From Candidatus Cloacimonadales bacterium (GTDB taxonomy: Bacteria; Cloacimonadota; Cloacimonadia; Cloacimonadales; JAFGVF01), in NCBI GenBank assembly GCA_963667035.1, contig OY762964.1:2720001-2784000 (forward strand): DNA of 64,000 bases, in the 5' to 3' direction. The stretch's first letter is position 1, and each line of letters begins with the position of its first letter. Shown piece after piece: positions 21,001 through 36,000 of the stretch. Position numbers: made by a program.

Positions 21001-24000
21001 CCTTGGTTTATAAGACTTATGACTAATAGCGATACAACAGTAAGCAAGCAGACTTGGACCGGTATTGGTATACACGGTACTCATGCACCTGAATCTATTG
21101 GAAAAAGAGCAACAGAAGGTTGTATAAGATTAAAAAATAAGGACATCAGAGATTTAGTTAAATCTTTACCAGATAATGGGATTAATACAATCGTAGAGAT
21201 TATTGAGTAATTTTGTCTATATGTAGCTCTTTAATAAAGCTATTTCATTAGCCCAAATGTCCTCATTGGGAGTTTCCAAGATAAGAGGAATTTCATCGAA
21301 TCTACTATCTTGCATAATTAATCTGAAAGCTGTTAGACCAATCTTCCCTTCACCAAGATTCTCATGTCTATCTACATTTGAGGAAAGCTCTTTTTTAGAG
21401 TCATTCAAATGCATTCCTTTGAGCATGTTAAAACCTATAATACGATTAAACTCACTAAATACTTTATCAAAACCCTCTTCCGAGCTTAAATCATAACCTG
21501 CTGTATATGCATGACATGTATCAATACAGACACCTACCCTTGAAACGTCAATCACACCATCAATAATCGTTGCAATCTGCTCAAACGTATAACCCAGATT
21601 AGACCCTTGTCCAGCCGTGTTCTCTATTACAGTTATAACATTACTGCATCTTCTATGGGCTCTATTTATTGATTCAGAGATTAATTGAAGTGCACTATCT
21701 TCTTCAATTAACTTAAGATGACTTCCGGAATGAAAGTTAAGTAGCTTTAAACCTAACTGATTACATCTTTGCATTTCATCAATGAATGCTTGTAAAGATT
21801 TCTCCCTTAATTCACTATCAGGATGTCCTAAGTTTATTAAATAGCTATCATGAGGTAGAATTTTGTCCAAATTAAATTCGTTTGTAATACAGTTCTGCTT
21901 AAAATTTACAATAGACTCGGTAGTTAATGGTTTACTAACCCATCTTCTTTGATTCTTAACAAACAAGGCAAAAGTATCTGCCCCTATCTTTTTTGCATTT
22001 AGTGGAGCCTTATCCACTCCTCCCGATGCACTTACGTGAGCACCAATATACTTCATTGAAAACTCCAGAATGAATTTATGAGCATTCTATGAAGCAACTG
22101 ATAATGTGCAAGTTTTTTAACATAAGTTCGTATTAAACAAACAAAAGGAAATGAGATGACCTTGGAAAATAAAGCTTAAGTTATATATAATAACAATATC
22201 AAACAAAAAAAGAATTGCAGAAAAACCCGATTTAGGATTAAAATGAACCAAATCTAATATCTTGAGGTTAAGAAAGAGTGAGTGAATCATATACATCTAA
22301 CACTATTATTTCATATATAAACTCATTTTTGAGTTATCCCAATCCCGTTTTACCGGAAATGGAAAGGAAGCATCAGACAAGAATAAACATTCAACCTAAT
22401 ATGAGTTTACAGGGAGCTACATTATTACAGTGTCTTTTAATAATGAACAATGCAAAACATGTAATCGAGATAGGTGCATGTATAGGTTACTCGGCAATAT
22501 TCATTGGTGAAGTAATGAAAAAGAACGGTGGTAAGTTGTACACTATAGAGATTGATGAAAGATTTATCCCTGAAATCTATGAAAACATCTTATCTGCTGA
22601 TTTATACAAACAGATTGAAGTAATTAACGGAGATGCCGAGGAAAAACTTGATACAATATCCGGAGAAGCCGACTGTATCGTGTTGGATGCTAATAAACCT
22701 TTGTATCCGAGAATACTTACAAAATGTATTGATAAACTTAGGGTTGGCGGTTTTATTTTTGCAGATGATACCCTCTTTAAGCCTATGGGATTAGCAAAAA
22801 GACTCAGTGAGCCCATGGACGAATACAATAAGCTGGTTTTTAATCAAAGCAATCTGATTAGTACAATATTGCCTATAGGTGATGGAATTACTCTAAGTAT
22901 AAAAACAAGTTAAGGAGAACTAAATGATAAAAAAGAGTATTTACATAATTGTTGTTATAGCTTTAGCTATTGTAATGATGGCAGCAGACAGTGATAACGA
23001 AGTTAAGAAGCTATTTAGAAAATCAAGAATTAAACAGTGTGGCGGCACTCTGATACAAAAAGAAGACGGATGGTATTTAAAAGCAGATAATAATCAGGAA
23101 CCAATGCTTTATATTGACTCTGCTGATATTGAGAACAACGAGAAAGTGAATTGGGTTAATGGGGCTACAGTAAAATTAGTAGGTCTTGCTCATCAGGAAA
23201 AGCTCTTAGTTACTACTGTCATTACTGAAACTGATACAATATTTGTAAGGGACTCTAAAGGTGATAAATATACGGAAGAAGGTCTTGCTTCAAAGTGGAG
23301 TGTCATTCCTGAAAAATGTATAGGTTGTGGACTCTGTGTAAGATTATGTCCTGTTGATGCAATAACTATGGTTAAAGGCAAAGCTTTGATTGATCAATCA
23401 AAGTGCATTAATTGCGGTAATTGTGCTCATGGTGGAATCAGAGGAAGAGGTTGTCCTACAAGTGCAATTAAGAAATGAAATTATCCTATTCATATTAGTA
23501 ACTGTTTTTTTACTATTAGTCGGATGCAACGATTCCATATCCAAACTTTCTGTTGCAAGCAATATTGCACCCGACCCAATATCCGGACTTACAACACTTA
23601 AAGTAAATGACAATTATATTCAAGTTATTTGGGATATACCTATTAGTGATTACTTGGACCATTACATGGTTTATATATGTGAGAATAGCGATGTATTGAC
23701 TTTAACTGATAACTTATATACTGATAAGCTCCTCGGATTTGCAGGAAAGAATAGACAGGGTATCACTATTAGAAATCTGCAAGCATCTACAGAGTATAAA
23801 CTTGGTGTTATTTCTGTTAACAAGTATGGAGCAAATAATGGACTTCAAGATTCAATTGTAGTTACAACTACCGACTTGCATATAAATGATACTGAAGTGC
23901 CACAAACACCGGAGTTAGTTAATATCTCAGCCCATTTAACAAAAGGTATTGATTCCGCAGCTAATACTGAGATTGAAATAGAGTTTACCCCTGGGAATGG

Positions 24001-33000: not shown

Positions 33001-36000
33001 TAATGAAAACAATGGTTCAGTAGTTTGGAATGGGGAAAATTTAAATGGAAGAATCTCTTCAACCGGAGTTTATTACTATAAACTATCAAGTGGTAAATAT
33101 ACCGAAACAAAGAAAATGTTGATGGTAAAATAACAGATATTTTTAAGGTTAAGGGTTGAGTTATACTCAACCCTTTTTTATTTTGATTCCAGGCATAACT
33201 ACAAGATATCATTATATTCATTGCTTGACTATAAAACCATTAGATTAATGCTATGATTTAAGTGAGGAATGGAGTCGTATTTTGGTAATAGAACCCGAAG
33301 AAATATTCACAGTAAGTGAAATTAATAAGCATGTAAAAAATATTATAGAAGGTAATATCTCGAGCCTTTTTATTGAAGGAGAGATAGCAAACTATGTTCA
33401 TCATAGTTCAGGACATATCTATTTTAGCGTTAAAGATACAAGTAGCACACTAAAATGCGTATTCTTTCGTAATGCAAATCGATATCTCGATTTTTCCCCT
33501 AAAAACGGAGATAAAGTAATATTATCTGGAAAATTAACCGTGTATGAACCAAGTGGTCAATATCAATTCAATGTAATGAAAATGTTCTCATCAGGAACAG
33601 GGCTACTTCAATTGGAGTTTGAGAAACTAAAAGTAAAACTTATGACCGAAGGTTTATTTCAAGAAGAGCATAAAAAAGCGATTCCTAAGTATCCTGAAAA
33701 AATTGGAGTGGTAACTTCTCCTTCCGGAGCTGCCTTTCAAGATATATGCAATGTTCTTAAGCGTAGATTTCCCATAGAATTGTTTCTTTATCCTGCTTTA
33801 ACACAAGGAGAAATTGCTCCAGAGACATTGATAAAAGGAATAAGATACTTTAATGAATCTAAATCCGTAGATTTAATACTATTAGGGAGAGGTGGGGGTT
33901 CTCAAGAAGACTTATACTGCTTCAATGATGAAAGGCTTGCTAGGGAAATATATAAATCCAATATACCGATTATTGCAGGTATAGGTCATGAAATTGATTT
34001 TACAATTGCAGATTTTGTTTCTGATTTAAGAGCACCAACACCATCAGCAGCTGCCGAGTTAGCAGTTCCGGATAAAGAATCTCTAATTAGAAACCTTAAA
34101 GATCAGCAATCTAGAATTGATACTGTAATGAAGCGAGAAATCATGAAACTGAGAGTGCTTATAAGTGATTTAAGCCGAAGAACTGAAACACAAAGCCCTG
34201 CCAGAAGGCTCCAAACGCAGCAACAGAGATTAGATGAAGCAGTGCTAAAGCTTTCATATTTTGGAAAAAGAGTTACAAGTAAAAAGGAAAATATTGAATC
34301 AATTGGAAAGCACTTCAAATTGCTAGGATTAAAGGTAGTTGATGCTAGTCTAAAGAAACATGCTTATAGTCTATCAAATCTAAAACAAAGAATTATAAGA
34401 GAAAAGAATGAGATTGTTAAGAATAATCGTATAAAGTTATCCAAACTTGATTCTGAATTACTGTCTCTTTCTCCTCAAAAGGCTTTTGATAGAGGCTTTG
34501 CTATGATTCGTAGCAAGAATAAATTGATGAAATCAATAGATGAAATAAATGTTGGGGAGTCTGTGAGAGTTACATTAAGTGATGGAGAATTAAGTTGTAC
34601 TGTAGATAGTAAGAGTGAGAGGCAATGAGATTTATTGTACAGATTGTATTTATTCTACTAAGTGTAATGGCAAGCTTAAATCTATATTGTCATGAAATTC
34701 GAGCAGTATGGGCAACTTCATGGGAAATTGATACTCCCGGCAAGATTGATAAATTAGTAGAAGATATGGTATCTAATAATCAGAATACTATTCTTGCTGA
34801 AATACGCTATAGAGCTGATGCTTTATATATACCTAATAAGTCCAATTGCGAATATACAAATCCTGATCCCAGAAGTTATATTCTTGATAATCTAACATTT
34901 GATGCACTGCAATACTTAATTGACTCTGTATCTGGTAAAGATATCTCACTACACGCTTGGCTTCCTGCATATGTAGCTGCACCTGTTGATTTAAGTCGAT
35001 TACCACAATCCCATATCTACTTCACTCATCCTGAATTGTTTACATGTAAGCAGAAAAAAGATTCTGACAATTGTATTAATGATGAAGGATACTTCTTAGA
35101 CCCGGGAAATCCGGAAGTGCTTGAATATCTTAAGAATGTTATTATGGATATTGTTTCAAACTATCCTCAGATTGATGGTGTACACTTAGATTACTTTAGA
35201 TATCCAGGCATAGATTTTGGTTATAATGAAGAAGCATACAAGGGCTGGTTAGATTATAATGAAAGGAAACCAAGCTCCAGTTTTTCAGAATGGAAACGAC
35301 TTCAATTAAACAAATCTTTGAAAGAAATACATAATCAATTATCCATAGTGGATTCTAACAAGGTTTTATCAGTTGCTGTTGTTTCGGATTATCAGAGAGC
35401 AATCACTGATTATTCACAAGATTGGCTTTATTGGCTTGAGAATGATTATATTGACTACGTTTACCCAATGGTTTACTCAACTAATACTATCATAGTATCA
35501 TCATTTTTAAGTAATAAGAATTATCTCGAATACAAAGACAAAGTGGTAATTGGTTTAAGAGCTTTTAACTCATATCCTAAACAAGATTATCCTCTGTTCA
35601 AAATCAAACAAAATATTAATGAAGTTAGGACTAACGGATATGTCGGCATCTCTTTATTTTCATATAGTGAGCTTTTACAGAAGTACTTTACTGACCTGAA
35701 AGAATCATACTATCAACAGGGAGCAATACAACCTATAATTCAACCTCATTCCAAAGATGAAGCAACAACCCAAGAGGTTGAAACAATACTTAAAACCAAA
35801 GAATTAACTCAAATCGATTCAACTGAAGTTGTTTGTGAAGATTTCACTATAAAACTTCAACAGAAAAACAACAAATTTGTTGTTATAATTGAAACAGATA
35901 CAAGTTGTCATATTGAGTGGAAAATAAAGTCAAAGAATGGCTTTACCTTATTCAACAGATTTAGATGGTATTCAAAAGGTAAGACCATTGAGAAATGGGA

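Follow-up and report, generated by a model that had tools for sequence, protein, structure and literature searches.

Six adjacent genes, here called A to F, form one translationally coupled operon that is conserved in Cloacimonadota, and the most likely function of this operon, with a probability of about 45%, is to provide a chain of iron-sulfur centres that works without haem or quinones. The genes lie in a window of 64,000 nucleotides (positions 2,720,001 to 2,784,000 of contig OY762964.1, assembly GCA_963667035.1) in the genome of Candidatus Cloacimonadales bacterium, an uncultured anaerobe; this genome is a single, 98%-complete contig. A preliminary description had joined eleven genes, A to K, into one extracytoplasmic iron-sulfur chain. 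All eleven genes are in place, and the exported proteins, the barrel, the DsbD_2 partner and the lack of matches to Tat and cytochrome c maturation bear out part of this reading, while the membership of G to K is not supported. No published description of the A-F system was found in the literature.

Four ferredoxin genes with export signals

Genes A to D, on the plus strand as are all of A to K, encode proteins matching the Fer4 families of Pfam (E 1e-14 to 4e-7). Gene A (22924..23478) combines a signal-type N-terminus (MIKKSIYIIVVIALAIVMMA), a domain of about 100 aa without known family (Pfam gave no match to residues 25-125 alone) and a C-terminal dicluster Fer4 region, in the second site of which a 9-residue insertion precedes the last Cys; A-type proteins occur in 27 of 80 related loci at a coverage of at least 50%. 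Gene B (23462..24466) begins with a GTG at 23462, read from the DNA, which gives MQLRNEIILFILVTVFLLLVGC, a start that we infer within a frame open from 23390; it encodes a lipoprotein with an FN3 domain (Pfam fn3) and a C-terminal 2x[4Fe-4S]-type Fer4 domain. Gene C (24460..24711) specifies 83 aa, in which a K/R n-region precedes a hydrophobic core, a site of small residues and a 2x[4Fe-4S]-type Fer4 domain; we read its product as a ferredoxin that is either soluble in the periplasm or anchored N-in. The 80-aa product of gene D (24704..24946), whose ATG at 24704 was also read from the DNA, is a lipoprotein ferredoxin of the 2x[4Fe-4S] type beginning with MNKIVIVLVIMVVALAIGC followed by DK. Lipoboxes had been proposed for two ferredoxins of the cluster, and those of B (LVGC) and D are both confirmed; the same-genus orthologue of B retains one (FTGC), and the lipobox Cys is kept in 59/59 orthologues at the position of D.

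In the alignment of D (A3, 60 sequences) C19 and seven ligand Cys are invariant and the eighth is Cys in 56 sequences and Asp in 4, Asp at this place being a substitution known from Pyrococcus-type ferredoxins. In that of C (A4, 55 sequences) none of the 8 ligand Cys varies. The profile of D matches MvhB (4e-45), FwdF (2.5e-38), RnfB (1.4e-24) and the clostridial ferredoxin 1fdn (4e-10) among solved structures. These data bear on the possibility that the proteins are cluster-free, their cysteines forming disulfides or binding another metal outside the cytoplasm, so that they buffer the redox state of the periplasm, take up oxygen or peroxide or act as a sensor, recycled by F as a CcdA-like thiol reductant. 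F does fall within the DsbD/CcdA superfamily, whose known role is thiol reduction, the genome has a general periplasmic DsbD/TlpA system, and neither a Tat match nor an exported Fe-S scaffold was found in it. We nevertheless consider this possibility improbable, for 55 to 60 divergent sequences retain all eight ligand positions as well as the Pro that follows the fourth Cys, the sole substitution seen is to Asp at a place where Fe-S ferredoxins tolerate it, a pattern unexpected for structural disulfides, and the dedicated barrel and the surface-sorted paralogues would be left unexplained.

Census of motif proteins in the genome and in related loci

The strict C..C..C...C motif was found genome-wide on 35 stop-to-stop ORFs, six of which have a strongly hydrophobic N-terminus. 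These are an RnfB-like protein and precisely the five ferredoxins to which export signals had been ascribed, namely A, B, C, D and g00379 (contig 491164-491946, minus strand, outside the window). A twin arginine is absent from all five, and the earlier motif counts are reproduced (A 1; B, C, D and g00379 2 each), as is the architecture of g00379, with two Fer4 domains, CarboxypepD_reg (1.9e-10) and Por_Secre_tail (1.8e-7). When a start-and-signal heuristic was applied to Fer4-motif ORFs, it flagged as exported 5/35 in this genome (A, C, D, g00379 and one NapH-like membrane protein) versus 200/231 of those upstream of F in the 80 related loci, so the clustering of export signals near F exceeds chance. 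At least one export-tagged Fer4 ORF lies upstream of F in 65 of the 69 loci that have at least 2 kb of flank there. The operons of relatives add T9SS-tailed and FN3-rich Fer4 proteins: 111 of the Fer4 proteins encoded upstream of F exceed 100 aa, and of these 12 have Por_Secre_tail and 33 have FN3 domains.

That the Fer4-domain proteins are built for export rather than for RnfB-like cytoplasmic anchoring is well supported: the lipobox Cys is invariant in the D orthologues, paralogues carry T9SS tails and runs of FN3, and the n-regions are rich in K/R. In the opposite arrangement the N-termini would be RnfB-like anchors and the Fer4 domains, remaining in the cytoplasm, would supply F from that side, with no connection to E. 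The RnfB of the same genome likewise has a hydrophobic N-terminus, the hydrophobic segments of A and C are, in our own reading, flanked by charge on both sides, and MdrA, a DsbD-like protein of methanogens with Fe-S clusters, is a precedent, on which a literature search returned no paper. We regard this arrangement as highly improbable, since B as well as D has a lipobox, the T9SS tails and FN3 runs require the periplasm, the n-regions differ from the uncharged N-terminus of RnfB, and the barrel gene E is translationally coupled to D. A and C, whose signal cleavage was judged by eye, may be uncleaved N-in anchors.

Export systems and electron carriers of the genome

The claim of export without Tat agrees with the genome, in which neither TatC nor TatA was matched; TatC was matched in 7/201 Cloacimonadota genomes, and 82 of the 84 genomes bearing F have no TatC match, the two genome lists having been compared by hand. 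As searches for a Tat system gave no match, Sec must be the route by which the apoproteins cross, and they would receive their clusters after export. A way in which Fe-S clusters are built in the periplasm is not known. The only IscU-like and Nfu-like genes of the genome have no signal peptide, and searches of the genome found neither an A-type carrier nor an exported Fe-S scaffold. Lgt and LspA for lipoprotein processing and an SprA-like translocon are all encoded. The cytochrome-free character also stands, as this genome gave no match to cytochrome c maturation (PF01578) and has no multihaem ORF (at least two CxxCH). A UbiA-family quinone prenyltransferase was likewise not matched here, whereas it was matched in 14/14 control genomes, which makes a quinol donor unlikely.

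The barrel E and the inner-membrane protein F

Start and stop codons overlap at A/B, B/C, C/D, D/E and E/F, which indicates translational coupling from A to F. Of 20 related loci retrieved as 18-kb pieces, 19 have Fer4 genes beside F. Gene E (24946..26154), with an ATG at 24946 read from the DNA, encodes the 402 aa reported before, including a signal peptide and the C-terminus ...GTRIAF, and no Pfam or NCBIfam family was matched. Its AlphaFold2 model (33 sequences; pLDDT 89.4, pTM 0.79) upholds the earlier reading of a barrel: E models as a 20-strand outer-membrane barrel without a plug, with 270/383 mature residues in strands and a longest non-strand stretch of 23 aa. Foldseek returned generic outer-membrane barrels only (Occ/Opd at E 1e-8, barrels of TonB receptors at TMq 0.5-0.6). 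The ORF immediately upstream of F is E-like, having a signal peptide and ending in an aromatic residue, in 18/20 and 38/44 loci.

Gene F (26154..27125) encodes a DsbD_2 protein (Pfam 1e-19) of six TM helices, modelled by AlphaFold2 at pLDDT 83.6, for which a search found no structural relatives. The alignment A2 (39 sequences) has 48 invariant columns, including C19 and C23 in TM1, C104 in the loop before TM4 and C128 (FCP) in TM4. Residues 209-323 form a Cys-free alpha/beta domain that is not a thioredoxin fold and is read as a periplasmic, docking-type domain.

In public sources the homologues of F are called "sulfite exporter TauE/SafE family", and the DsbD/TauE/LysE group is rich in transporters. 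A role in iron or sulfur handling is to be weighed, in which the exported Cys-motif proteins would take up or pass on iron, sulfide or preformed FeS clusters, which abound in sulfidic anoxic water, E would be an outer-membrane pore for entry or exit, and F would move the cargo across the inner membrane with its four invariant cysteines as transit ligands. Besides the family label, the position of three of these cysteines in TM1 and TM4, the open barrel and an operon with neither a catalytic redox enzyme nor a thioredoxin-like acceptor would fit such a role. On the other side, complete twin CxxCxxCxxxCP motifs with the conserved Pro typify stable, electron-carrying dicluster ferredoxins, the nearest solved relatives of the D profile are electron wires, and the many paralogues differ in reach (soluble, lipid-anchored, T9SS-tailed and FN3-stalked). 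NapH-like Fer4_5 membrane polyferredoxins, one of which is encoded elsewhere in this genome, share a gene string with F in 18 of the 80 related loci and are more easily reconciled with a relay than with a carrier, and the A-F operon contains no TonB box, plug or ABC importer. On balance, iron or sulfur handling appears unlikely.

A separate thiol-reducing unit downstream

An AT-rich, non-coding spacer of about 279 nt (27126..27406) separates A-F from five further genes. Gene G (27407..29008), whose ATG is preceded by GGAGG, encodes a full-length DsbD with a weak DsbD_N match, DsbD_TM (9e-45) and a C-terminal thioredoxin domain with WCSSC; H (29011..30402), a lipoprotein (ISAC), has a weak Thioredoxin_3 match and a thioredoxin-like region containing WCPNC; I (30414..30935) is an exported TlpA/ResA-type thiol-disulfide oxidoreductase with WCDPC (AhpC-TSA 8e-25, Redoxin, ResA 2e-23). 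J (30939..32369), a DUF6029 protein (1e-17) with a signal peptide, is probably an outer-membrane barrel, and K (32381..33133) is a T9SS cargo with Por_Secre_tail (3e-9) and TIGR04183 (7e-10), the type A C-terminal sorting domain.

Were G, H, I, K and J, as a second barrel, obligatory to the ferredoxin chain, A to K would make up one system, as the preliminary description proposed. The genes are adjacent on one strand in the window, and the spacer has no terminator-like site, so read-through from F to G is possible in this genome; the only strong plus-strand terminator-like site in 21900-33400 is a hairpin of 11 pairs followed by a T run (33151..33175), after K. A DsbD system in a genome without cytochrome c maturation needs other clients, and the insertion of clusters would need reduced cysteines. 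The distribution of the genes, however, splits the cluster into two units and renders the single system quite improbable: H, I, J and K lie no more than 6 kb from F in 1/80 related loci and G in 0/80, and in a same-genus genome, where G-K do not adjoin F, H is about 130 kb away from it. H-like proteins are present in 172/201 genomes of the phylum, with or without F, compared with 84/201 for F itself, and in 61/62 genomes of three genera in which F was not found (18/19 in g5, 20/20 in g8 and 23/23 in g10). G-K is a separately conserved, phylum-wide periplasmic thiol-reducing unit, which may help to keep exported cysteines reduced but is not specific to the A-F system.

Comparison with known systems

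Porin-cytochrome conduits such as Shewanella MtrCAB, PioAB/MtoAB and Geobacter Pcc span the outer membrane. A passage of PMC10654088 lists PioABC and MtoAB. Like these conduits, A-F is a gene string of a plug-less barrel, a soluble periplasmic multi-centre carrier and a lipoprotein carrier, and redox centres are proposed to be threaded through the barrel, a ferredoxin inside E being putative. In contrast to them, A-F has no haem, its carriers are 6-kDa dicluster ferredoxins, E has 20 strands rather than the 26 of MtrB, and there is no sequence or family relation.

Modules of the NapGH and NrfCD type consist of a periplasmic ferredoxin-like Fe-S subunit and a membrane partner. They share with A-F the ferredoxin-type 4Fe-4S domains on the periplasmic side fed by a membrane protein and, in the case of NapGH, the NapH-like proteins found in related gene strings. 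However, the periplasmic subunits known from these modules receive their clusters in the cytoplasm and are exported by Tat, whereas A-D have no twin arginine, the genome has no Tat match and a reductase partner is absent. F resembles CcdA and DsbD in being a DsbD_2 protein of six TM helices, the first and fourth of which contain conserved Cys-Pro motifs, and CcdA in a topology that we read from the K/R-rich loops 1, 3 and 5 as N-out and C-out, but it differs in having two further Cys that are invariant (C19 or C23, and C104), by a C-terminal periplasmic domain without Cys and by neighbours which are ferredoxins and not a thioredoxin-like acceptor; its profile matches G, the window's own DsbD, weakly (hhalign probability 14%).

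D shares its dicluster module with the chained 4Fe-4S wires MvhB, FwdF and RnfB (9sw6, 5t5i, 9eri), to which its profile gives its best sequence matches. These wires are cytoplasmic and fused into one chain, unlike the separate small proteins of A-F with their own export signals. In Shewanella, DmsEFAB is a surface DMSO reductase; its ferredoxin-like Fe-S subunit works on the outside of the outer membrane, to which a barrel gives access, and is a precedent for such a location. DmsAB, however, acquires its clusters in the cytoplasm before Tat and then type II secretion export it, and it relies on a decahaem partner. Searches of this genome found neither route.

Proposed function and its meaning for the phylum

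In the chain of iron-sulfur centres that we favour, F would move reducing equivalents from a cytoplasmic donor over the inner membrane, the small ferredoxins would ferry them through the periplasm, and E would be their crossing of the outer membrane. Against this chain, proteins of the DsbD family are known as two-electron thiol-disulfide relays, and the reduction of one-electron carriers is not a known role of theirs; moreover, A-F offers no thioredoxin-like acceptor, no catalytic subunit and no obvious terminal acceptor. A and C would reach the periplasm by their Sec-type signals, B and D are lipoproteins, and g00379 and the paralogues of related operons would be sorted to the surface by T9SS; A-D would bind their clusters in the periplasm. 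We infer the direction and partners of electron flow, as well as any connection with a partner cell or an acceptor outside.

F orthologues occur in 37 of 61 genera of the phylum. In g5, g8 and g10, the three largest genera sampled, F was found in 0/62 genomes, so the lifestyle of the phylum does not depend on the A-F module. Where it is present, it looks like a putative, hitherto undescribed haem-free electron path over the cell envelope.

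Results

Eleven genes, here lettered A to K, lie on the + strand of the window between positions 22924 and 33133. A (22924-23478), B (23462-24466, in an ORF open from 23390), C (24460-24711) and D (24704-24946) reach 4Fe-4S ferredoxin family (Fer4) scores in Pfam, with a further FN3 domain in B. The next gene, E (24946-26154), belongs to no Pfam or NCBIfam family and is predicted to encode a barrel, and F (26154-27125) matches DsbD_2 (1e-19). After an AT-rich spacer of 279 nt follow, within 27407-33133, a full-length DsbD (G), a lipoprotein whose WCPNC region is thioredoxin-like (H), a TlpA/ResA-type oxidoreductase (I), a DUF6029 protein that is probably a barrel (J) and a type IX secretion (T9SS) cargo (K, Por_Secre_tail 3e-9). 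Read from the DNA, the likely starts of B, D and E are GTG 23462, ATG 24704 and ATG 24946, stop and start codons overlap at every junction from A to F, and E is translationally coupled to D. Pfam searches with the N-terminal domain of A, the middle part of B, the C-terminal domain of F and the N-terminal part of H returned nothing except fn3. The sigma-70 promoter scan stayed at chance level (44 sites against 50 expected). An O-methyltransferase gene (22278-22913), which has the best promoter-like site upstream of it, ends 10 nt before A; this neighbour is kept in one of 80 loci, that of the same-genus relative.

The neighbourhoods of F orthologues were compared in 20 Cloacimonadota genomes and in 80 further loci from public MAGs. 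F is found in 84 of the 201 Cloacimonadota genomes searched and in 37 of 61 genera, with Fer4 genes beside it in 19 of 20 loci, an E-like ORF directly upstream in 38 of 44 (six genomes being counted twice) and an export-tagged Fer4 gene upstream in 65 of the 69 loci with enough flank. A to F is the conserved unit. The preliminary description had taken A to K as one cluster, and this is not borne out: one locus out of 80 has genes H, I, J and K near F, no locus has G there, and in the same-genus genome H lies about 130 kb from F. H-like proteins occur with or without F, being present in 172 of the 201 genomes and, in three genera (g5, g8 and g10), in 61 of 62 genomes, F being found in none of these 62. 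Because G to K are rarely near F and H is so widespread, including in genera where F was not found, we read G to K as a unit that serves thiol reduction in the periplasm throughout the phylum and stands next to A to F here by happenstance. Read-through from F into G may nevertheless take place in this genome, since the spacer holds no terminator-like site and a strong one follows K. As the genome gave no match for cytochrome c maturation, the G to K operon would serve other clients.

The strict C..C..C...C motif occurs in 35 ORFs genome-wide, six of which have a strongly hydrophobic N-terminus. These six are an RnfB-like protein and exactly the five proteins to which export signals had been ascribed, namely A to D and g00379, a protein encoded outside the window (contig 491164-491946, - strand) that combines two Fer4 motifs with a CarboxypepD_reg domain and has a T9SS tail (Por_Secre_tail 1.8e-7). 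The accompanying statement that none has a twin-arginine motif also stands, as RR is absent from all five N-termini.

Conservation of the export signals was followed in the orthologues. D is a ferredoxin of 80 aa whose gene directly precedes that of the barrel; a K/R-rich n-region, a hydrophobic core and a lipobox Cys are present in 59 of 59 orthologues, and the lipobox Cys is invariant in an alignment of 60 sequences. The lipobox of B, LVGC in this genome, reads FTGC in the relative of the same genus, and the lipoprotein pathway is encoded in the genome (Lgt 3.6e-71, LspA 1.4e-39). Members of family C, from the gene before D, always combine a K/R n-region with a hydrophobic core and a small-residue site, the first cluster motif following 8 to 12 residues on. 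A heuristic which picks the start and scores the N-terminus was applied to Fer4-motif ORFs up to 6 kb upstream of F, and it flagged 200 of 231 (68 as lipobox, 132 as signal- or anchor-type), leaving 31 with neither, among them cytoplasmic GltD/DPD-like enzymes, NapH-like membrane proteins and wrong start choices. As a control, the same heuristic flagged 5 of the 35 ORFs across the source genome, including one true membrane protein and missing B and RnfB. Among the 111 Fer4 proteins of more than 100 aa upstream of F, a T9SS sorting domain occurs in 12, FN3 in 33 and a NapH-like Fer4_5 domain in 18, and six are flavoenzymes. Some lipoproteins are giants, 600 to 1720 aa long, in which up to seven FN3 domains in a row are flanked on either side by a Fer4 dicluster domain; they are encoded at L036:1490-6649 and also at loci L079, L084, L096, L110 and L114.

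The T9SS machinery is represented in the genome by an SprA_N match in an ORF of 2063 aa, an SprA-like translocon, and by a PorV-like protein (E 2e-40, under the curated cut-off); with a sorting domain and a translocon at hand, g00379 and K classify as T9SS type A cargo. We also considered an orientation like that of RnfB, in which the Fer4 domains would face the cytoplasm, and rejected it, because T9SS tails, FN3 stalks and lipoboxes all need the periplasm and because the N-terminus of RnfB is of another, uncharged kind. It is well supported that this genome, in which no gene for Tat, cytochromes or quinones was found, exports ferredoxin-type proteins with a barrel of their own.

As to the ferredoxin domains themselves, B, C and D each carry two strict CxxCxxCxxxCP motifs and score over the Pfam cut-offs; A has one strict motif and a second with a 9-residue insertion. 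All eight ligand Cys are invariant in family C (55 sequences). Seven are invariant in family D, the eighth place being Cys in 56 of 60 sequences and Asp in 4, which we take to be the substitution known from Pyrococcus-type ferredoxins. The profile of D matches the solved polyferredoxin wires MvhB (4e-45) and FwdF, and also RnfB and clostridial ferredoxin. The conservation of the motifs, together with the Cys-to-Asp variant, which structural disulfides would not be expected to tolerate, speaks for the predicted binding of two cubane clusters. The same cysteines might instead serve as a thiol buffer without clusters, a role which is less likely because of how the motifs are conserved.

If the domains carry clusters, the question arises how these are loaded. 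Tat is the known route for periplasmic iron-sulfur proteins. Neither TatC nor TatA was matched in the source genome, a single contig of 98% completeness; TatC was matched in 7 of the 201 Cloacimonadota genomes (6 above cut-off), and 82 of the 84 genomes with F have no TatC match when the genome lists are compared by hand. Having neither a twin-arginine signal nor TatC/TatA, the exported ferredoxins do not class as Tat substrates. A search for assembly factors, which covered IscU-, Nfu- and A-type factors with SufBCD, ApbC and others outside it, found no exported one: there are one IscU-like and one Nfu-like gene, both without signal peptide, and no match for the A-type carrier family PF01521, which is matched in control genomes. 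With no Tat and no exported factor of these three types, the clusters, if carried, must be gained after Sec export. Speculatively, it is conceivable that they assemble by themselves through the chemistry of iron- and sulfide-rich anoxic water, or that a very small folded domain passes through Sec.

An alignment of 39 sequences of F has 48 invariant columns, including C19 and C23 in the first transmembrane helix (TM1), C104 ahead of TM4 and, within TM4, C128 as part of an FCP motif. Its structural model has six transmembrane helices and a Cys-free alpha/beta domain (residues 209-323). By our own reading, the K/R-rich loops 1, 3 and 5 predict a CcdA-like topology in which the N-terminus and the alpha/beta domain both lie on the periplasmic side. 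F scores 71.7 bits against DsbD_2 (PF13386, cut-off 24.9), with Cys in TM1 and TM4. It passes this family test but lacks the thioredoxin-type acceptor which defines how CcdA and DsbD work, for its C-terminal domain has neither Cys nor a Pfam match and no thioredoxin-like gene is found among A to F. The only label that homologues bear is 'sulfite exporter TauE/SafE family', every one of them is from Cloacimonadota, and in the ESM Atlas F falls into a Cloacimonadota DsbD_2 cluster. F is 72% identical to its homologue in 'Candidatus Zophobacter franzmannii', the closest relatives otherwise being Cloacimonadales MAGs; the scan of the genome collection used Cloacimonadota-specific patterns and is uninformative on absence in other phyla. 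No clear structural relative of F emerged: Foldseek with F gave nothing at E <= 0.001 and a PDB sequence search nothing below E 0.1. VIA-align wide gave middling scores at the level of helix bundles (SLC19A1, Z 8.6; RnfA, Z 7.9 over 151 residues with rmsd 6.3; NqrE, Z 7.7), and for residues 219-312 an equally middling likeness to LacI-type alpha/beta domains (Z 7.7). One F orthologue (L039:8440-9801, - strand) carries a Cys-rich insertion of about 130 residues in the C-terminal domain (CPDESEYGENNSACSSCS); neither a Fer4 gene nor a barrel gene is next to this orthologue.

The model of E, built with 33 orthologues (pLDDT 89.4), consists of a signal helix and then 20 strands which take up 270 of the 383 mature residues, with no stretch long enough for a plug. 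The chain ends in an aromatic residue, as is usual for outer-membrane barrels. Foldseek found generic barrels only, the ESM Atlas places E among unnamed porin-like clusters, and a profile search gave at least 7 matches, none of them named. By barrel geometry, 20 strands give a C-alpha diameter near 39 A, close to that of TonB receptors, whose 22 strands hold a plug of 150 residues, so that one or two ferredoxins of 60 residues could fit inside E. In a complex prediction, E as the partner of the mature forms of C and D together with four 4Fe-4S clusters scored 0.79, 0.78 and 0.78; two controls with E replaced scored 0.00, and replacement of C by an unrelated protein still gave 0.73, which leaves the result short of the mark, so that it speaks neither for nor against binding.

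Discussion

The feature is real, conserved and unusual. A full-text literature search brought up no paper describing ferredoxins that are exported, are lipoproteins or carry T9SS tails, nor one describing a ferredoxin-barrel module, and the module goes unmentioned in the examined passages of the Ace Lake Cloacimonadota paper on close relatives (PMC8542988). The predicted logic of A to F resembles that of porin-cytochrome conduits (MtrCAB/Pcc) and of NapGH-type modules, but defining features of both are missing, namely haems, a Tat signal and a source of quinones. With the former, A to F share a barrel gene, E, beside carrier genes; they differ in the multihaem cytochrome and its maturation, as the source genome has no ORF with two or more CxxCH and gave no hit to PF01578, the family of cytochrome c assembly proteins. 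From NapGH-type modules they differ in that the operon in the window has no NapH-like Fer4_5 gene, such a gene being present in 18 of 80 related loci. Nor was a UbiA-type prenyltransferase found in the genome, although 14 of 14 control genomes match. The only NapH-like Fer4_5 membrane polyferredoxin of the genome lies elsewhere (L046:1027-1800, at about 1.993 Mb of the contig), beside a LexA-like repressor and glmS.

That A to F act as an electron conduit is, on present grounds, a good hypothesis. They would form an envelope-spanning chain of iron-sulfur centres, in which F would move reducing equivalents from a cytoplasmic donor across the inner membrane, C and A would carry them through the periplasm, and D and B would do so at a membrane. 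E would then let the chain cross the outer membrane, and T9SS-tailed paralogues such as g00379 would continue it as far as the cell surface. The results above show the architecture and the export; that electrons flow, which way and to what end, is what we infer, and the main rival explanation is that the same parts handle or transport iron-sulfur. Six loci have a flavoenzyme of about 838 aa encoded directly upstream of the ferredoxin genes (L062:3454-5967, L075:1137-3644, L080:1125-3641, L085:640-3162, L089:1080-3176 and L107:2747-5257), with Fer4_20, Pyr_redox_2 and a C-terminal Fer4 domain, and DHO_dh in at least one of the six; it could be the cytoplasmic electron donor or a mere neighbour.

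The conduit can be drawn more sharply as a joint reading, to which we give roughly one chance in four: inside E, with its 20 strands and no plug, C and D would be stacked into an iron-sulfur wire of four clusters that crosses the outer membrane, F would be a transmembrane electron carrier of a new kind whose four invariant Cys would hold an intramembrane redox centre, for which the cluster between NqrD/E and RnfA/E is an analogy, and the clusters would be gained after Sec export without Tat. Two textbook rules, that Tat, which carries them ready-made, is the only way for iron-sulfur proteins into the periplasm and that electrons leave diderm cells through multihaem cytochromes, would fall together if the joint reading is true. 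A to F would give extracellular or interspecies electron transfer its first route free of haem and quinone and would also be the first case of Tat-independent biogenesis of extracytoplasmic iron-sulfur proteins, and would point to an unknown way to build or insert such clusters outside the cytoplasm. Since the parts are small (about 60 residues each for mature D and C, about 380 for E) and conserved over a phylum, the question is directly testable. A ferredoxin wire through the envelope, if it exists, would mean that fermenters without cytochromes or quinones could shed or take up electrons, which is relevant to syntrophy and to the way electrons are exchanged in anoxic sediments and lakes.
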